Virus record (IMG/VR): IMGVR_UViG_2751185961_000005
Location: 1 to 9,987 of that record
Strand: one strand, 5' to 3'
DNA from: a virus
Taxonomy: Duplodnaviria; Heunggongvirae; Uroviricota; Caudoviricetes
DNA length: 9,987 nucleotides
The position numbers were made by a program, and so were the translations under genes. The notes under the pieces were generated by a model. That model was not told where the DNA came from. It searched no databases and saw only the letters and a program-made list of their open reading frames with translations. Each line of letters starts with the position of its first letter. Position 1 is the stretch's first letter. This document shows positions 1 through 6,831 of the stretch, one piece after another.

Positions 1-520
1 AGCGATGGCGGTTATGGTTTGATTCGATTTCATCTACTGCTTCCTGCCCGATGCGGCTAATCAGTTCGACGCGATACGGAACGAGATTTCCGCTTTTGTG
101 CTGGTTGCACACCACGCATTGCTTGTGAATATTGCGTTCATCAAATCGGAGTTGAGGTGCCGCAGCAGTTGTCCGGTAATGTCCGGCATCCCACTGAGCA
201 GACGTGAGCGTTCCGCACGAGATACATGGTAAGTCGCGGTCTCTTTCTCTGATGAAGGCGTTTACGGCTTGTTGGGCTTGTTTAATCCAGTAACTGCGGG
301 GCTTTAAGGCGAGTTTTCGAATCTTCAGTTTATCTTTCTGTTTCTGCTCCTCTCGTCGTCGTTTCTTCTCTGCTGCTTTTTCCGCTTTTTCGCGTTCTTT
401 ACTTCGTCGTTCGAGTGCTAATTGAGTTCCGTGTTCCGGGCAGCACCACCACTGATTTGAGAATGCCGGGTGAAACCATTCTTTGCATATTTTGCATTTC
501 CTTCGCGCTGGTTTAGCCAT
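1..520 (-). CDS. ninG: NinG/Rap-like recombination protein, partial (C-terminus lies beyond the left window edge)
   Basis: Minus-strand translation from the ATG at 520-518 reads [172 protein letters not shown], near-colinear with lambda NinG as I recall it. Open to the window edge, so not in the supplied ORF track. Its ATG overlaps the upstream gene's stop (TAATG). Confidence 0.85.
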
Positions 521-1248
521 TAAGCAGCCTCCCCTGTTACTTTCAGCATTCCGTTATCGAGCAGCTTTCTGGTCAGCCACTGTTGACCACGCCCGGTGAT
601 TTTTGTGGTGAACGATATCTGTATTCCGTGATTTGTGTTGACCGCTGTTTCTTTCACTGTGAAATAGCCGCGATCCATATATTCCTGCATTGGCACATTG
701 CGCCGGGCACCTGAAGTAATAAGGATTTTGTGATCGCGCATCCACGCAAACAGTTTGTTTGGACCAATTCCAACAACCTTTGCATAGTTTCCAATCAAAA
801 TTCCGCTGGCCTCGCCAACGCGATCGGCAAACTCAACTTTAGGTGCTGCGAGAGCAAGCTGTTTCTCCAGTTCAGCCTTCTGGTCTTCAAGGTCGGCCGC
901 AAGGCGCAATGCCTCAGAAAAGGTTTGTGGTATTTTCGCGGTTGCCCCTTCGAGTTCTCGCCAACGGTCAACAAGACGAGCGGTGAATTCCGGCGACAAT
1001 TGGGCAACAACGACAATACTGTCTCGCTTACCTTGTTCGCCTTCGAAGACGTAATGCTCGTACTGAACATTGAACCCTAAGTTATTGATTCTTTCGGAAA
1101 CCTCAATTTGAGGAAGCCGGATAACACCATTTTTAGCCAGCGTTTCGATGGTACGTTTCACATTGTCATGACGCTTACCAACCAACTCAGCGATTTCAAT
1201 GCTTGTCATTTTAATGACGTTGCTATTTATCAGCTCGTTCATTGTCAT
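520..1248 (-). CDS. Phage antirepressor, Rha-family N-terminal domain plus KilAC/Ant C-terminal domain
   Basis: 242-aa ORF. N-terminus [22 protein letters not shown] matches the Rha motif (recalled from family members); the C-terminal half has the Ant/KilAC-like segment [33 protein letters not shown] upstream of ATG at 1248; stop overlaps the ninG start. Confidence 0.8.
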
Positions 1249-1272
1249 GTCCTCTCATATTGAAAATTCAGC

Positions 1273-1300
1273 AATAAAAAACCCAGCCGAAGCTGGGTTT
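1273..1300 (-). terminator. Rho-independent terminator (7-bp GC-rich stem ACCCAGC/GCTGGGT, CGAA loop, T-run on minus strand)
   Basis: Plus strand reads AAAAAACCCAGCCGAAGCTGGGTTT; on the minus strand the hairpin is followed by TTTTTTATTG. Sits between the ORF6N-type gene and the antirepressor gene. Confidence 0.6.
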
Positions 1301-1316
1301 GTTAAGTTGTCAATTG

Positions 1317-2030
1317 TCAGTAACGATGCAGTGAAGGCGGCAACTCTTTGTTCTTAAGCCTTTCCCATGCCAGAAGGTTCGTCGGCCCGTCAGGCTCATA
1401 AATATCTATATCCCGCGTGTGATTAATTAAAACGCCCCTCGCCCTCCCGATGGTATACGAGAACTCATAGCCGTAGTCGTGGCATATGCCGGAATAGCCA
1501 GACTGAATCAGTTTTAATGCGGGATACAACTCACGGAACAATGCCTGTGAGCGGTTGGCATAATCCCACAGCCATACAAGGCTGTCTGTTTCTTTTGCGG
1601 AAAGCCCGTTGAGCTTCTTCTCTTGTTTGCCAGTATTTTTCTCGCACTGGCTGAAATAGCAGTCTTCCAGTTTTTCGAACACTTCCCACGCCTGATCAGT
1701 TTCGAGCATTTTTGCGTGACGGGCTGCGCCTCGTTCTGTCCAGAGGATGAGGGAGCGAACATTGCGGGCGATTTTCACAGAGTAACTTTCTGTTACCTCG
1801 CGGCTAACAGACTCGCTTAAAGATAGTCTGTGCTTGAACTCACGTAGTTCATTCCCTTCCAACTTAAAGAAATGTTTTCCCTGTACAAATCGCGCAGAGT
1901 TACGGGAAAAATTCATTTTTATATTGACTGTTTCAGTGCCATACAATTGCGCCAATAATTCTGTAGTAATTACGGGGATCTGGTTGTAGGCAATTGGGGA
2001 AAGAGTTTCAACGGAAATTTGAGTCGCCAT
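1317..2030 (-). CDS. ORF6N/KilA-N-like domain protein (N-terminal about 90 aa); C-terminal about 140 aa unassigned
   Basis: 237-aa ORF with RBS GAGGG 8 nt upstream of ATG at 2030. N-terminal segment [41 protein letters not shown] resembles the ORF6N pattern (LA.LYGV.T..LN..V.RN..RFP.DFMF.L) as I recall it. The C-terminal half has no motif I recognise. Confidence 0.55.
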
Positions 2031-2051
2031 GACAACGCCCTCTGGTTGATG

Positions 2052-2080
2052 AATTTAACTATCACCACCGTCAGGTGCAA
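2052..2080 (-). promoter_or_regulatory. Candidate sigma70 promoter for the ORF6N-type gene (-35 TTGCAC, 17-bp spacer, -10 TAAATT on minus strand)
   Basis: Minus-strand sequence TTGCAC-N17-TAAATT lies immediately downstream of a terminator and about 20 nt upstream of the RBS and ATG at 2030. Confidence 0.4.
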
Positions 2081-2190
2081 ATCTTTGGGTGGTGAGACGT
2101 ACAGGGTTTGCACTACCGGATCAACCAACCGGCGAGCCTTTCGGCTCCCCCATACGCCCCACCATAATTCAGATGTGCGTGTGCTTACGA

Positions 2191-2216
2191 CAACAAAAAA
2201 CACGCTCGCGGCGTGT
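2191..2216 (-). terminator. Rho-independent terminator (stem ACACGC/GCGTGT, 5-nt loop, T6 run on minus strand)
   Basis: Plus strand reads CAACAAAAAACACGCTCGCGGCGTGT; on the minus strand the hairpin is followed by TTTTTTGTTG. Lies downstream of ninE. Confidence 0.5.
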
Positions 2217-2308
2217 GTCTGTCGCGGTTGAATATCCGGGGTGCAAATCCCGACGCCAGATTTTGCTGGCGCGTGAGGAATATAGCCCCGAATAAATCAT
2301 CACGTCAA

Positions 2309-2491
2309 TCACCTTGTATTCCTCGCACGATGTCTTAGCCACCGGATATCCCACAGGTGAGCCGTGTAATTGAAGGTTTTAACGTCAGATTCTTTTGGGA
2401 TTGGCCTGGGTTTATTTCTGGAACGTTTCGTTGGAAGGTAATTGCAGTTTTCACAGATTATGTCGGTGAAACTTCGTCGCTGTCGCCTCAT
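2309..2491 (-). CDS. ninE: NinE protein
   Basis: Translation [60 protein letters not shown] is near-identical to lambda NinE as recalled. ATG at 2491 overlaps the stop of the upstream ORF (ATGA). An in-frame ATG at 2509 would extend it by 6 codons. Confidence 0.8.
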
Positions 2492-3090
2492 GCCACCCTG
2501 TCTCCCCATCTTGCTTTCATTGTTTCATTTGCAAATCGCCAGAATCTTCCTTTGTGATATGAGCTTTCGCCATTACAGCAACGACTAATTGACGAACTAT
2601 CAAATCCTTCTCTGACAGCATCCATAGCTGCTTCATAATAAACCTCCTCCCCAGTTTTCATGTCAGTAGAAATAACAGCTTTACTGGCAGGATGATCACC
2701 ACTAAATTTACCTAGCGATATAGGTATTCTTCCATTTTGTTTATATCCGTGCTTTGAGTTTTCAGAATGTGATACCCATTCAAGGTTTTCAGCCCTATTG
2801 TCATCTCTTTGCCCATTTTTGTGATTAACTACCAAGCCATCACAGAACCCTGTACAGAATGCTTTCGCAACTATCCTGTGGGCGCTGTATTTCTTACCGT
2901 ATACCTTTATTTGAAGATATCCTGTCGACTTGCACTTGAATGGTTTTACGCTAGTGCCATTAATTATTTTCTTATATGGCCTCTGTCTGGTTGATGTTAC
3001 TGTAATTTCCCTCGTAATAGACCTGAAATTTCCTTTATTGCTAACCTGATAAAATGGAATTCCTTCGATATCTACCCAAACCTCAATCAT
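2488..3090 (-). CDS. NUMOD4-motif HNH homing endonuclease, C-terminus fused in frame to the last about 9 codons of a lambda-like ninB
   Basis: 200-aa ORF with RBS GGAGG before ATG at 3090. N-terminal [17 protein letters not shown] is NUMOD4-like; HNH core reads [23 protein letters not shown]. The C-terminal tail [11 protein letters not shown] matches the lambda NinB C-terminus (EWKARWGDRAA, recalled). AT-rich relative to flanking genes. Confidence 0.75.
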
Positions 3091-3980
3091 AATTCCTCCA
3101 TTCGCTAAGATTAATTGAGTTCATGGCACAATATGCTTCTATGTAGTCCATTATTTCGGATATTTTTTTTACAGATAGAGTCGCCGTACTCTCTCTGATG
3201 TTTATTAGCTCACCTTCTAACCCTGATATAATCTCAGGGTGCTGGTTGGTTGCAATCTGCCAACCAGAAACGAATAACCCCTTCCAAAACTCAATATTTC
3301 TTGCTTTTCCATGATATGTAGCCTTCTTACTTATTTCAGATAGCATCGCGTGAAGGCGTGCATTTTGCCGAATGCTGCGGTTGCGCTGCTTAAACTCGAC
3401 AATGATGTCTAAATCGCATGTCCTAAGATACTGAATGGCGTTATATCTTATAGATTCATTAGTAAGGTGATATTTGACACATTTCATTTTAATACCTCGC
3501 AAATTCGCCGAAACATTCATCCGCTTTATTTGCATATACTTTATGAGCTTCCTTTGGGTCATCGTAAAACCCAAGATTAACTTTCCTCTTGTTGATTACG
3601 ATTTGCGCCCTCCATTTTCTTGATTTCTTATCCCATGAAACGCCTTTATATCCTGATTTGTTATTTGCCTTTTTGTTTACGTTTTGGATGTTTTGAGATC
3701 GAGTTGCCAATCTAAGATTTGCTATACGATTGTCATCCCTAACGAGATTTATGTGGTCGATATCACTTTTTGGTAGACTGCCATTCATATAGAGCCACGC
3801 CAGCCTGTGTGCCTTATAAAGTTTTCCATCGACTTTTATTACCCAGTAGCCTTCGCTACTCTTATGCCCTGCGATATCCCCAGCATTCATTCTCTGGCAT
3901 TTCTTTACTTTCCATGTGAATTTCCCTGTTAACTCATCGTAGAGAAGAACTTCTTTAAGTCTCTGCTGAGTTATTTGATT
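2524..3980 (-). mobile_element. Homing-endonuclease cassette (HNH-AP2 gene, divergent ninB, NUMOD4-HNH gene) embedded between the 5' and 3' remnants of a lambda-like ninB
   Basis: Visibly AT-rich block bounded by in-frame junctions with lambda-like ninB codons on both sides. Two unrelated HNH families bracket a second, divergent ninB allele. Boundaries are approximate. Confidence 0.5.
3083..3487 (-). CDS. ninB: NinB/Orf-family recombination protein, divergent allele lacking the canonical last about 12 residues
   Basis: Starts at ATG 3487 (RBS GCGAGG 8 nt upstream), not the track's upstream Met. Protein MKCVKYHLTNESIRYNAIQYLRTCDLDIIVEFKQRNRSIRQNARLHAMLSE... aligns along its length with lambda NinB (MKKLTFEIRSPAHQQNAIHAVQQILPDPTKPIVVTIQERNRSLDQNRKLWA..., recalled). 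Ends SEWRNYD* where lambda continues ARLALEWKARWGDRAA. Confidence 0.7.
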   Translation of the reverse strand: MKCVKYHLTNESIRYNAIQYLRTCDLDIIVEFKQRNRSIRQNARLHAMLSEISKKATYHGKARNIEFWKGLFVSGWQIATNQHPEIISGLEGELINIRESTATLSVKKISEIMDYIEAYCAMNSINLSEWRNYD

Positions 3981-4076
3981 GATTGGTTTGGTTGGGTCTG
4001 GAAGAATTTGCTGGATAGCTTGAATGGCGTTCTGCTGATGGATGGGGCTTCTTAGTTCAAATGTTAGTTTCCTCAT
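3489..4076 (-). CDS. HNH endonuclease with C-terminal AP2-type DNA-binding domain, N-terminus fused in frame to the first about 32 codons of a lambda-like ninB
   Basis: Start taken at ATG 4076 (M28 of the track ORF; RBS-like GAGAGGA upstream). First 32 aa MRKLTFELRSPIHQQNAIQAIQQILPDPTKPI are about 27/32 identical to the lambda NinB N-terminus. They are followed by the HNH motif DIDHINLVRDDNRIANLRLATRSQN and an AP2-like segment SGYKGVSWDKKSRKWRAQIVINKRKVNLGFYDDPKEAHKVYANKA. Confidence 0.75.
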   Translation of the reverse strand: MRKLTFELRSPIHQQNAIQAIQQILPDPTKPINQITQQRLKEVLLYDELTGKFTWKVKKCQRMNAGDIAGHKSSEGYWVIKVDGKLYKAHRLAWLYMNGSLPKSDIDHINLVRDDNRIANLRLATRSQNIQNVNKKANNKSGYKGVSWDKKSRKWRAQIVINKRKVNLGFYDDPKEAHKVYANKADECFGEFARY

Positions 4077-4239
4077 CACCCTTAATCCTCTCGAAGTTCT
4101 TCTCGAAGTTTTTGGTGTCGAACACTGACCACCGACCATTATGAATGGCGTATGCACAGGTCTTGTTTTCGTCCTGATAAACTACCCTTACCTTGCGATA
4201 AAACCGTGGCTTAATCTCTCTGAATATTTGCTCGCTCAT
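4057..4239 (-). CDS. Hypothetical small protein (60 aa)
   Basis: RBS AAGGAG 5-6 nt upstream of ATG at 4239. Protein MSEQIFREIKPRFYRKVRVVYQDENKTCAYAIHNGRWSVFDTKNFEKNFERIKGDEETNI. The 3' end overlaps the ninB-type start by about 20 nt. No recognisable motif. Confidence 0.5.
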   Translation of the reverse strand: MSEQIFREIKPRFYRKVRVVYQDENKTCAYAIHNGRWSVFDTKNFEKNFERIKGDEETNI

Positions 4240-4950: not shown

Positions 4951-6831
4951 TTAATACTCCGTCACGTTTTCCTGTCTCCACGCCTCGTCATATTCCGATT
5001 TCGGCATATTGGCGATGTAGCTATATGGAGATCCTGATTCAAGTTGCAGGAACTGGTGCGATTGCTCGTCAAGGAACAACGGGATACCACCTTCCCAACC
5101 TTCACCGTTACGTTGTTTTTCAAGCAACAAAACAGATGCCGGAGACACCAGTAGCTGTTCGTCCTTCTCTGACATCTGTTCACCGCTTTGAACTCTCTGT
5201 AACGCTCTCTCGCGAGCCTTGTTACGCCAGATGATAAAAAGGTTGTCTGTCAGGTCTGTTATCGCTCCAGAGCCTTTTACGTCCATTTTCCCGGTTGGTT
5301 TTTCTTCGCTGTCTCCTTTTCGCGAGTGAGTAACGAGAATGACGTGGGAGTTTGTTTTGTTTTTGAAGTCGCAAATCGAGTCAACAAACGCCTTCTGCCC
5401 GTTATAGTCATCGTCGCCTATGCCACATTTCATCAGGCTGTCGATGATGAATAACTGGATACCGTATCGGCGGCGAGCGTAGTCGAATATTTCGATCAGC
5501 CTGTCGGCTTTCGCCGTTCCGGTCAGGCCAAACACCCAAAGTCTTTCGTCATAAAATTTAAATGCAGAGTCAATTTCCAGCACTGGCGGCATCTTGCAGC
5601 ACGTCGCCTGACGGGTAAGGCGCTTAAGGAGAATACCAGGCTTCAGCTCAAGTGACGCGATGCACGTCTTCACACCCTGACGCATTGCCTCAAGTGCCAT
5701 ATGCCCGACAACCTCCGTTTTTCCGTGACCGTTCACACCATTGACCAGCGTCAACTCGGCCTCACGGAACTGGAATTTATCTGCCAGAGATTCCCACGGT
5801 GGATTAAACAGATACTGCTGCTTGCCGTAGAAAGCGTTGATAGTGTCCTGGTAAAACTCTCGCGCGCTGTAGAGTTCTTCAGGATCGAAGTAGGATGCCG
5901 TGCCGATGTACTGCCAGATTTCATCCTCGGTAACACCGTTCATCAGGCATTCGTTGATGTCTTTGTACGGCAGAGTAACAAGACGGCAACGATGTTCACC
6001 GAGTCGGCTTGCGATTTCCCTTGCGGCTTCACGACCAACATCATCAACATCCATCGAGATGAATATTTCCTCAAACCTGTCGAGGTTGTGATACTCAAAC
6101 TCAATCCACTGCTGCTTAGCGCCTTTCCCGCCACCAAACGGCACGGATAACGCCGAGATGCCGTATTGCGCATAGCTCATACAATCAATTTCGCCTTCGC
6201 AAAGTACAACCGCCCTCACGCCAGCGTCCAGAGCCTGCCATCCGAACAGACAAGGTTCGCAATCACCTTCTGCCATAATGACTTTCTTCCCGTCCGGGCG
6301 CTCAGTGCTGATTCGCTTGACCTGCAACAACTCACCATCGCGTTTGTACGGAAGCACCAGAGCATCCAGTTCCCGCTCTCCATTCCACACCTTGCCGCTG
6401 ACAACCTCGTAGCGCTTTACGACTTCTGGCGATATGCCACGCGATTGCAGGTACTCAAGATGGGATTCTGTTCTGGTAACGTAACTGGCGATTTTCTTGC
6501 GATCAGGTCTGGAGAATTTCTTCTCACGTCTGGCATCGAAATGGTGATCGTCATCCTTGATACCGAGAAATGCTTTCGCTTCCTGCATAGCCTGATGCAG
6601 GTTAATTCCACGACATGCCATCCACAAATCAAGCATGTCACCGCCGTCTCCCTCAGCGAAATCAGCCCATTTTTTCTTGCCGCTAAGGTTGACCTTAAGG
6701 CTGTTTCCCTTGTCACCGTTAACGTTACCGGCAACCCACTCATGCCCCTCTTTCTTGCCGTTTGGCAACAGGTGCGGAGCCACCCTGTCAACCTGCGCCC
6801 AAAGCAGGTCGCTCAGTTCACTTGGAGTCAT
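4951..6831 (-). CDS. Bifunctional DNA primase/helicase (Toprim domain plus DnaB-like/SF4 RecA-fold helicase)
   Basis: 626-aa ORF. Toprim-like acidic motif VVLCEGEIDCMS; Walker A GVNGHGKT; Walker B-like LFIIDSLMK. Position matches the lambda P slot downstream of the initiator. Confidence 0.85.
   Translation of the reverse strand: MTPSELSDLLWAQVDRVAPHLLPNGKKEGHEWVAGNVNGDKGNSLKVNLSGKKKWADFAEGDGGDMLDLWMACRGINLHQAMQEAKAFLGIKDDDHHFDARREKKFSRPDRKKIASYVTRTESHLEYLQSRGISPEVVKRYEVVSGKVWNGERELDALVLPYKRDGELLQVKRISTERPDGKKVIMAEGDCEPCLFGWQALDAGVRAVVLCEGEIDCMSYAQYGISALSVPFGGGKGAKQQWIEFEYHNLDRFEEIFISMDVDDVGREAAREIASRLGEHRCRLVTLPYKDINECLMNGVTEDEIWQYIGTASYFDPEELYSAREFYQDTINAFYGKQQYLFNPPWESLADKFQFREAELTLVNGVNGHGKTEVVGHMALEAMRQGVKTCIASLELKPGILLKRLTRQATCCKMPPVLEIDSAFKFYDERLWVFGLTGTAKADRLIEIFDYARRRYGIQLFIIDSLMKCGIGDDDYNGQKAFVDSICDFKNKTNSHVILVTHSRKGDSEEKPTGKMDVKGSGAITDLTDNLFIIWRNKARERALQRVQSGEQMSEKDEQLLVSPASVLLLEKQRNGEGWEGGIPLFLDEQSHQFLQLESGSPYSYIANMPKSEYDEAWRQENVTEY

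Follow-up and report, generated by a model that had tools for sequence, protein, structure and literature searches.

Within the 9,987-nt stretch of viral DNA analysed here (the window), a leader and a single open reading frame are co-oriented with the early-right operon and sit between ninE and roi/ninG, giving the gene order ninE, leader plus ant, roi-type gene, ninG. The initial annotation had placed the reading frame between ninE and ninG; ninE does adjoin it on one side, but on the other a roi-type gene, whose homologue goes by the name Roi in the annotations of VT2-Sakai, Phi24B and PhiR12_1, intervenes before ninG. The features of the region are as follows.

2309-2509, minus strand: ninE, the upstream flank (Pfam NinE, 139 bits)
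2308-2279, minus strand: P_isrK, a probable promoter, TTGACG (2308-2303), 18-nt spacer, TATATT (2284-2279)
2195-2272, minus strand: IsrK-type small RNA, matching Rfam RF01394 over its full length (1-77) with 76.3 bits (cut-off 50; E = 2e-15)
2249-2240, minus strand: a1 site in IsrK, within GATTTGCACC
2231-2225, minus strand: b1 site in IsrK, TCAACCG
2216-2200 (stem), U-run to 2195, minus strand: intrinsic terminator of IsrK, 6-bp stem, z = -2.7
2085-2169, minus strand: C4-type antisense RNA, matching Rfam RF01695 over its full length (1-87) with 74.4 bits (cut-off 45; E = 2e-13)
2074-2083, minus strand: a2 target site GATTTGCACC, 1 nt after the C4 3' end, complementary to segment a' of C4
2050-2043, minus strand: b2 target site ATCAACCA, adjoining the ant Shine-Dalgarno sequence GAGGG (2042-2038)
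1317-2030, minus strand: ant, an ATG open reading frame for an antirepressor-type protein of 237 aa (ORF6N at residues 12-108, P22_AR_C at residues 138-209)
1272-1300, minus strand: strong intrinsic terminator that closes the unit 17 nt downstream of the stop codon of ant
520-1248, minus strand: roi-type gene, the downstream flank (Rha N-terminal domain plus KilAC/ANT; Pfam ANT 112 bits, Phage_pRha 36 bits)
2-520, after the roi-type gene: ninG (Pfam NinG, 273 bits)

The 278-bp spacer between ninE and ant holds three Rfam families, isrK, c4-a1b1 and the C4 antisense RNA, and all three matches lie on the ant strand. The second of these, RF03163, overlaps isrK at 2285-2233 and scores 45.8 bits, just under its cut-off of 46.7. 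The present analysis establishes what each part is, how the parts are arranged and that their pairing sites co-vary.

The -35 hexamer of P_isrK begins one base past the stop codon of ninE, and its -10 hexamer ends 7 nt before the isrK model begins at 2272. The site scored 10/12 in a consensus scan, one of only three in the window to do so, and TTGACR-N18-TATAKT is kept in 8 of 10 homologous loci. These include Gifsy-1 of Salmonella, where deletion of the isrK promoter abolished both transcription of the antirepressor gene anrP and stationary-phase prophage induction (PMC4825925). We regard TTGACG-N18-TATATT as the probable promoter of the unit. A different sigma70 candidate had been proposed from the sequence at first, TTGCAC-N17-TAAATT. 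Its hexamers are present, running from 2080 to 2052, but they match the consensus at only 7/12 positions, which is chance level: the window contains 1,031 matches of this quality, one for roughly every 19 nt of strand. The consensus scan of the window did not return this candidate, and its equivalents in nine relatives score between 5 and 8/12 and are not conserved. The supposed -35 (2080-2075) was further rejected as a promoter element because it lies within the a2 target site and changes in step with C4.

IsrK has a predicted fold of three hairpins, comprising two 5' hairpins that bear a1 and b1 and its own intrinsic terminator. Both sequence features of a Gifsy-1-type locus, an isrK promoter (10/12) and an IsrK terminator (hairpin plus U-run), are present in the window. 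The same hairpin had initially been described as a terminator at 2191-2216 that flanks the gene upstream. The 6-bp stem and T-run exist (2216 to 2200), but they are internal to the unit and form the 3' end of IsrK itself; a role as an insulator ahead of the unit was rejected, since the hairpin belongs to the isrK match (2272 to 2195). Pairing of IsrK with the C4 loop segment was computed at -45.3 kcal/mol, a value reached by 0 of 1,000 shuffles.

The C4 element folds with a minimum free energy of -44.6 kcal/mol (z = -4.9; none of 200 shuffles folds as well) into the same structure as the annotated C4 RNA of phage P1. Two segments are exposed in this fold: b', the loop of the second hairpin (TGGTTGAT), and a', the single-stranded GTGCAAA that follows b'. 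The a and b labels used here are those of P1 nomenclature, and their usage in the APSE record is reversed. Downstream of C4, a2 is an exact 10-mer repeat of the a1 site in isrK, and b2 offers 8 nt complementary to the C4 hairpin loop and ends 12 nt before the ant ATG. Across 10 loci, in each of which an isrK and C4 pair stands upstream of an antirepressor-type ORF, a2 (7 distinct types) co-varies with a', the observed matching being reached by 2 of 100,000 permutations, and b2 co-varies with the C4 loop (0 of 100,000). The complementarity of a1 and b1 to C4 behaves alike (1-2 of 100,000), so that each of the four site pairs attains a value matched by 0 to 2 of 100,000 permutations. Over the same loci, matching between C4 and its targets averages 14.9 nt for cognate combinations versus 8.3 nt for non-cognate ones. 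Taken alone, a crude test of the duplex energy between the C4 loops and the downstream leader was not significant (the observed value was reached in 95 of 1,000 shuffles), and the case for a2 and b2 therefore rests on exact repetition, position and co-variation. In the predicted fold of the full leader, the Shine-Dalgarno sequence and AUG of ant are paired with the 5' end of IsrK; this pairing was set aside as an artefact or a lineage-specific feature, the complementary bases being missing, by eye, from APSE-7 and PA8.

The protein encoded by ant can be assigned along its whole length. The ORF6N-type, antirepressor-like N-terminus suggested in the initial annotation is borne out by Pfam (PF10543, 73 bits) and by 67% identity between the N-terminal 136 aa and AnrP of Gifsy-1. 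The accompanying view that the C-terminal 140 or so residues match nothing recognisable is refuted by a P22_AR_C domain (PF10548, 83.7 bits against a cut-off of 22.4), by phrog_377 'anti-repressor Ant', which spans residues 1-237 (E = 1.5e-82), and by 81% identity, at full coverage, of the last 101 residues to P22 Ant. The whole protein is 81% identical to Phi24B Ant, and public databases already list proteins identical to it throughout, as 'phage antirepressor Ant' and 'P22AR C-terminal domain-containing protein'. Pfam gave no P22_AR_N match in the N-terminus, and no NCBIfam model matched the protein. Structure prediction, from an alignment of 20 sequences all at least 81% identical, gave pLDDT values of about 80 for ORF6N and below 50 for residues 114-237; a sequence search against solved structures returned only chance-level matches (syncytin, E = 0.03). 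The GAGGG Shine-Dalgarno sequence lies 7 nt upstream of the ATG, and the start codon, at 2030, has the context GTCATGG. From end to end, Ant belongs among the conventional antirepressors of the Bro/Ant domain-shuffling network. Because its homologues act on prophage induction, we count the probable function of ant as phage regulation, that of an antirepressor, rather than as a host-benefit cargo.

The strong terminator that had been noted downstream of the gene at 1273-1300 was confirmed. It consists of a 9-bp stem (1300 to 1279; 5 G-C pairs) with a GC-rich core and a UUCG loop, followed by a U-run, and folds at -15.1 kcal/mol (z = -3.7; none of 200 shuffles folds as well). The hairpin was also considered as an isrJ homologue and rejected, there being no isrJ match in Rfam at E values up to 1; the sole match at that threshold was a chance-level one to rsmX (E = 0.06, far below cut-off). 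GC content across the ant unit is 0.42-0.52, like that of roi and ninG, and its base composition is not distinct from that of its neighbours, whereas that of the two HNH genes is.

Of 5,426 complete E. coli genomes, 468 contain the ninE-ant-roi region at a query coverage of at least 80%, as do 155 phage records; the E. coli genomes that have it carry a median of 2 and up to 7 copies each. Lambda lacks the cassette, and in lambda ninE overlaps ninF. Units made of the same isrK/C4 leader and a varying antirepressor ORF are found elsewhere too: after Q in Gifsy-1, and in differing contexts in PA8, APSE, a Yersinia phage (YpM_41) and typing phage 9. The ninE-ant-roi placement is nevertheless fixed in many Stx-type prophages. 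A conventional Bro/KilA antirepressor in a fixed position, which had been named at the outset as the finding that would speak against a moron, is thus largely what the protein family and the recurrence of ninE-ant-roi reveal.

The proposal of a moron inserted into a phage operon is nonetheless partly right. The unit is compact, very probably has its own promoter and ends at a strong terminator, and it is absent from lambda and varies in position among relatives. The terminator is clear, and the conserved promoter-like site at 2308-2279 has a function demonstrated in Gifsy-1 only. On the other side, the promoter originally named is at chance level, the composition is ordinary and the function is regulatory; neither a deviant composition nor a host-serving function was found. 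The cassette is self-contained and portable, and 'moron-like' is in part an apt word for its architecture. It is, however, a cassette of an already described kind with a regulatory function, and not a new cargo gene; ant, its domains, the RNA elements and the phenotype of a close homologue have all been published or annotated before.

Taken as a whole, region 2308-1272 on the minus strand is in our judgement very likely one regulatory cassette of the phage P1 immI/Gifsy-1 isrK type, which in all likelihood comprises, from 5' to 3', a promoter, IsrK, C4, the C4 target sites, ant and the strong terminator. A general mechanism for such a cassette can be proposed. Transcription would start at P_isrK (2308-2279) and, after induction, would also arrive from the upstream early operon. 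The IsrK terminator would stop most transcripts, releasing an IsrK of about 78 nt that carries a1 and b1, and the RNA that reads through would bear C4, a2, b2 and ant. We infer the use of P_isrK and the read-through of its terminator in the window from homologues; in Gifsy-1, anrP is driven by P_isrK and read-through has been shown (PMC4825925). C4 would then pair with a2 and b2, blocking ribosome entry and keeping Ant off, and the copies of these sites in IsrK may compete for C4 and so relieve the block. Translational repression through a2 and b2 has been shown for P1, whose annotated record describes these sites as 'repression of icd ant translation'. Once made, Ant would be expected to bind and inactivate a CI-type repressor, this being its presumed target, and to promote or accelerate induction, as AnrP, a tested antirepressor, induces the Gifsy-1 prophage. 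The CI repressor of the prophage in the window (8623-9270) is itself of the RecA-cleavable type (HTH plus S24), and Ant is therefore not needed for SOS induction.

The alternatives to this reading differ in how well they survive. It is possible, if rather unlikely, that ant in practice behaves like any delayed-early gene, its transcripts coming mostly from pR through N-mediated antitermination after induction, with P_isrK a minor contributor and the RNAs fine-tuning its timing. Such an arrangement is compatible with the cassette mechanism proposed above and differs from it on the origin of the transcript. It is favoured by the co-orientation of the cassette within the early-right operon and by work on Phi24B, in which ant was assigned to the early transcript and had an effect only after induction, expression in the uninduced lysogen being very low (Fogg et al.). 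It is harder to reconcile with the strong conservation of P_isrK, also in phages whose cassette is not part of the early operon, and with the outcome of the P_isrK deletion in Gifsy-1.

We consider it improbable that the locus operates by the exact mechanism described for Gifsy-1, in which IsrK acts in trans to open the mRNA, orf45 is translated and ribosomes re-initiate on the antirepressor. Both in-frame AUGs of orf45 are kept (2165 and 2153), and in the fold predicted for the full leader the central part of IsrK is paired to the C4 loops, which resembles 'structure A' (PMC4825925). The orf45 equivalent, however, is only 14 codons long; its TGA stop falls within the C4 loop and leaves 93 nt to the ATG of ant. 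The ant start has no ATGA overlap and is served by its own Shine-Dalgarno sequence. Over the 10 loci this C4-internal ORF varies from 8 to 46 codons. In Gifsy-1 the stop codon of this ORF overlaps the ATG of the antirepressor gene, and in PA28 the frame stays open to the antirepressor ATG, the extracted sequence ending before the stop of the ORF. Given that the Gifsy-1 model needs coupling through orf45 and that the ORF is here cut to 14 codons, the mechanism cannot be identical.

Least credible by far is a moron with its own sigma-70 promoter at 2080-2052, insulated by 2216-2191 and joining ORF6N to a novel C-terminal domain as a possible defence or toxicity cargo: the hexamers and both hairpins exist where this model puts them, lambda is without the unit and the ORF6N domain is weakly similar (27 bits) to models of the candidate system PDC-S05 in a defence-system library, but the unconserved 7/12 promoter has its -35 inside a site that tracks C4, the 'insulating' terminator belongs to the isrK match, the C-terminal half is P22_AR_C with no match in the defence library, and the composition is like that of the flanking genes.

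The P1 immI/Gifsy-1 isrK-type cassette remains our preferred reading, and it has implications for prophage behaviour. Antirepressor cassettes of this type provide a route to prophage induction that is independent of RecA cleavage of the repressor, and in Stx phages it is induction that governs toxin output. More tentatively, the lambdoid/Stx leader may represent P1 immunity-I pared down to a minimum, with C4 acting directly on the antirepressor ribosome-binding site and no coupling ORF, combined with an RNA 'specificity code' of a and b sites and with SOS-independent, prophage-specific induction and toxin release; we hold this to be possible, though on balance we would not expect it. The a and b sites fall into 7-8 distinct types among the 10 loci, and if the proposal were true this code would decide which of several prophages resident in one E. 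coli cell releases its antirepressor. In the literature that we found, IsrK and c4 are treated separately, and a specificity code is not stated for Stx phages. The locus also illustrates how cues in raw sequence may mislead, as the apparent -35 proved to lie in a site targeted by an antisense RNA, and the apparent insulating terminator turned out to be that of a small RNA.

A comparison with characterised systems places the cassette among several relatives. P22 Ant, encoded in an immI region with mnt, arc, ant and the sar RNA, shares the C-terminal domain and is likewise an antirepressor restrained by antisense RNA. Its N-terminus is P22_AR_N, whereas that of the protein studied here is ORF6N, and it is controlled by Mnt, Arc and sar in place of C4 and IsrK; no arc or mnt genes lie near ant in the window.

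The Gifsy-1 isrK-orf45-anrP-isrJ locus (Hershko-Shalev et al. 2016, PMC4825925) has a homologous promoter and comparable matches to isrK (79 bits there, 76 here) and to C4 (69 bits in the STnc1160 region there, 74 here), in addition to the related antirepressor N-terminal domain. Supplying IsrK in trans raised anrP translation more than 100-fold, and the derepressing mutations G28A and G31A, together with compensatory C162U and C159U, proved the a1-a' helix (PMC4825925). On the extracted sequence of that locus, these two pairs of mutations map to a1 and a'. The systems differ in the C-terminal halves of their antirepressors, which are unrelated, and in their a and b specificities. The Gifsy-1 cassette lies downstream of Q and that of the window between ninE and roi; isrJ follows the antirepressor in Gifsy-1 and was not matched here, and the short orf45 equivalent is uncoupled to ant.

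The immI operon of P1 and P7, with its P51 promoters, a1, b1, c4 RNA, a2, b2, icd and ant1/ant2, is the c4 system that gives the Rfam C4 and a1b1 families their names. We based our comparison on the annotated P1 GenBank record, in which promoter, a1, b1, C4, a2, b2, icd and ant follow one another at near-identical spacings. In both systems the a1/b1 region ends in a hairpin and U-run and the C4 fold is shared; a2 begins 3 nt after C4 in P1 and 1 nt after it here, and b2 ends 10 nt before the icd ATG in P1 and 12 nt before the ant ATG here. In P1, icd separates b2 from ant, whereas in the window b2 directly adjoins the ant Shine-Dalgarno sequence and no icd-like ORF lies between C4 and ant. The P1 operon has an Oc4 operator; none was identifiable at P_isrK, the cI-cro spacer having yielded no repeat to serve as a query. 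Moreover, the ORF6N plus P22_AR_C protein shares no domain relationship with what was tested for P1, and the P1 prophage is a plasmid while this one is lambdoid.

The closest relatives are found in Stx phages (Phi24B, VT2-Sakai and the 933W type, with ninE-ant-roi-ninG), where the same gene has the same position and neighbours. DNA identity over ninE-ant-roi is 91-92%, the isrK and C4 leader is common to both, and the C-terminal 117 residues of Phi24B Ant are near-identical. The differences are concentrated in a 12-residue insertion and other changes in the ORF6N domain, and in the leader, which is only about 81% identical and carries other a and b site sequences. Copies identical at 99-100% occur in PhiR12 phages and some E. 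coli genomes. In Phi24B, deletion of ant lowered the activity of the late promoter, read as pR'-lux after norfloxacin, to 27-56% of wild type, a partial phenotype (Fogg et al.).

The 237-aa ORF lies at 1317-2030 (-), as initially annotated, and the sequence features around it are real but ordinary: they make up the ant antirepressor cassette known from lambdoid and Stx phages, whose IsrK/C4 antisense leader is of the P1-immI type. The window is the early-right operon of a lambdoid prophage, read on the minus strand, with the following genes.

8623-9270 (+), cI-like repressor gene (HTH and S24 peptidase), facing cro and cII
8296-8553 (-), cro
7860-8156 (-), cII
6942-7697 and 4951-6831 (-), replication module
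3083-3574 (-), ninB, between two HNH endonuclease genes
2309-2509 (-), ninE
1317-2030 (-), ant, 237 aa
520-1248 (-), roi-type gene, directly after ant
2-520 (-), ninG

The replication module, a 626-aa Toprim + DnaB-like primase-helicase (4951-6831) and a 251-aa HTH_36 protein (6942-7697), is of another kind than lambda-type O/P. The HNH genes on either side of ninB, at 2488-3090 (-; NUMOD4 + HNH_3) and 3489-4157 (-; HNH_3 + AP2), are clearly AT-rich (GC 0.35-0.39, against 0.45-0.52 in neighbouring genes), and both look like homing-endonuclease insertions into the nin region. The strongest terminator-like hairpin of the window (7884-7911, +; 12-bp stem and T-run) lies antisense in the cII 3' end; its position and sequence are those of the lambda oop RNA terminator, and an Rfam search returned nothing at these positions.

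The C-terminal half of the protein had been thought to match nothing, a view that Pfam overturns: ORF6N (residues 12-108, 73 bits) is followed by P22_AR_C (residues 138-209, 84 bits), and PHROG 377, 'anti-repressor Ant', spans the whole protein (E = 1.5e-82). Over their full length, the last 101 residues share 81% identity with the C-terminus of P22 Ant, the archetypal antirepressor; the first 136 share 67% with AnrP of the Salmonella prophage Gifsy-1, and the protein as a whole shares 81% with Ant of the Shiga-toxin phage Phi24B. Public databases already contain proteins 100% identical to it, one of them on 179 contigs, under the names 'phage antirepressor Ant', 'P22AR C-terminal domain-containing protein' or 'ORF6N domain-containing protein'; at E up to 0.001 the family counts 6,777 members. 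Stx phage annotations call the homologue ant and the gene that follows roi. ORF6N and P22_AR_C type domains belong to the domain-swapping Bro network (PMC10111431). A role in defence finds little here, since a library search gave weak similarity of the ORF6N domain to one candidate system and nothing more.

The ninE-ant spacer is not empty, and carries Rfam RNA families on the ant strand together with the pairing sites of C4, named here as in P1 (a1 and b1 in IsrK, a2 and b2 after C4).

2285 to 2233 (-), c4-a1b1, 'a1, b1 targets of C4 antisense RNA' (45.8 bits, cut-off 46.7; detected at a looser Rfam threshold)
2272 to 2195 (-), isrK (Rfam 76 bits, cut-off 50)
2249 to 2240 (-), a1, the 10-mer GATTTGCACC, within the second isrK hairpin
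2169 to 2085 (-), C4 antisense RNA (Rfam 74 bits, cut-off 45)
2083 to 2074 (-), a2, a second copy of GATTTGCACC, 1 nt past C4
2050 to 2043 (-), b2, ATCAACCA, complementary to the C4 loop TGGTTGAT

C4 takes the fold of its family (-44.6 kcal/mol, z = -4.9), and the 10-mer is complementary to its GTGCAAA. b2 adjoins the ant Shine-Dalgarno GAGGG (2042 to 2038) without a gap, ending 12 nt before the ATG. C4 would most likely act directly on the ribosome-binding site of ant itself.

These elements change the reading of the signals flanking ant. The strong downstream hairpin and T-run are as first described (1300 to 1279, -15.1 kcal/mol; none of 200 shuffles folds as well). The upstream pair is also present, at 2216 to 2200, but belongs to the IsrK small RNA as its terminator, because the isrK match covers that stretch. 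The hexamers of the proposed sigma-70 promoter, TTGCAC-N17-TAAATT, do occur at 2080 to 2052, but match the consensus at only 7/12 positions, a quality reached by 1,031 sites in the window (roughly one every 19 nt of strand), and are not among the sites listed by a consensus promoter scan of the window. Their '-35', TTGCAC (2080-2075), lies within a2. The only strong promoter-like site near ant is TTGACG-N18-TATATT (2308 to 2279; 10/12, a score that three sites in the window attain), whose -35 begins one base past the ninE stop codon and whose -10 stops 7 nt short of where the isrK model begins.

Comparison of ten isrK + C4 loci (the window, E. coli NCTC9112, VT2-Sakai, Phi24B, PA28, PA8, APSE-7, Gifsy-1, Yersinia phage YpM_41 and O157 typing phage 9) decides between promoter and antisense target for the TTGCAC stretch. 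The a and b sites vary (7 distinct a2 words), always matching the cognate C4, while positions equivalent to the hexamers score 5 to 8 of 12 in relatives; the target is thus favoured. Summing the longest complementary stretches gives a mean of 14.9 nt for cognate pairs and 8.3 nt for non-cognate ones; for a'/a2, b'/b2, a'/a1 and b'/b1 (a' and b' being the pairing segments of C4), 0 to 2 of 100,000 permutations do as well as the real pairing. TTGACR-N18-TATAKT stands upstream of isrK in 8 of the ten. The RNA elements are the conserved features of the leader, which precedes varied antirepressor-type ORFs (ORF6N + P22_AR_C, ORF6N alone, ORF6N + Rha, Bro-N). In the two closest relatives the Rfam sRNA STnc100 (143 bits; L001 2617-2822, L002 617-822) lies beyond the window, after Q.

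The proposal that the unit is a moron survives in part. A probable promoter of its own, the strong terminator, its absence from lambda, where ninE overlaps ninF, the variety of antirepressor-type ORFs behind the leader, and a genome position that differs between phages all favour it. Against it stand a base composition similar to that of its neighbours, a function in phage regulation, and an order ninE-ant-roi that is fixed in a large prophage group (at least 80% covered in 468 of 5,426 complete E. coli genomes and in 155 phage records); one survey of 279 Stx phages reports Ant in 126 (PMC8136144). PhiR12 phages match the ninE-ant-roi stretch at 99.2% identity and the best of the 5,426 genomes at 93% over 87% of the query, despite which the identical Ant protein is found on many E. 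coli contigs. The 162-aa ORF at 9267-9755 (+) is a better candidate than the ant unit for cargo expressed by lysogens: its start codon overlaps the stop of the cI-like gene in an ATGA, the placement of rex-type genes, which lysogens express. Neither Pfam nor PADLOC matched it, and PHROG 5893, 'unknown function', is its only match.

The annotated P1 record has the order promoters, a1, b1, C4 RNA, a2, b2, icd, ant1/ant2, and the window shares its a1-b1-C4-a2-b2 arrangement. In P1, the single-stranded stretch that follows the second C4 hairpin (a') is the pairing partner of a1 and a2, and the loop of that hairpin (b') is the partner of b1 and b2; the record labels a2 and b2 'repression of icd ant translation'. 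The P1 b2 ends 10 nt before the icd ATG, whereas the window has no icd-like ORF between b2 and ant. In P1/P7, c4 RNA pairs close to the ribosome-binding site and so keeps the antirepressor from being made (PMC12197685, PMC8546580, PMC7313666).

In Gifsy-1, deletion of the isrK promoter abolishes anrP transcription, some IsrK transcripts pass the terminator to become mRNA, anrP translation goes up more than 100-fold when IsrK is provided in trans, and AnrP expression induces the prophage (PMC4825925). Numbered on the Gifsy-1 sequence, two derepressing mutations, G28A and G31A, fall in a1 (TTGGCGT), and C162U and C159U, which compensate for them, in a' (ACGCCAA) (PMC4825925), so the a1-a' helix is proven there. 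Unlike Gifsy-1, the window has no isrJ detected after ant, and its equivalent of orf45, the small ORF from conserved AUGs inside C4 (2153-2165, -), stops after 14 codons with its TGA in the b' loop, 93 nt short of ant. Among the ten loci this ORF varies from 8 to 46 codons (in Gifsy-1 its stop and the antirepressor ATG overlap; in PA28 the frame reaches the ATG and the stop lies beyond the extract), which suggests that the published coupling mechanism is lineage-specific and the RNA sites are the part that is kept. Might the variable a/b code provide every co-resident prophage with an SOS-independent induction switch of its own?

Phi24B lysogens express ant weakly, and deleting it leaves superinfection unaffected and late-promoter activity after norfloxacin at 27-56% of wild type (PMC3064807). 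The gene, its domains, the RNA families and the phenotypes of homologues have all been described before.
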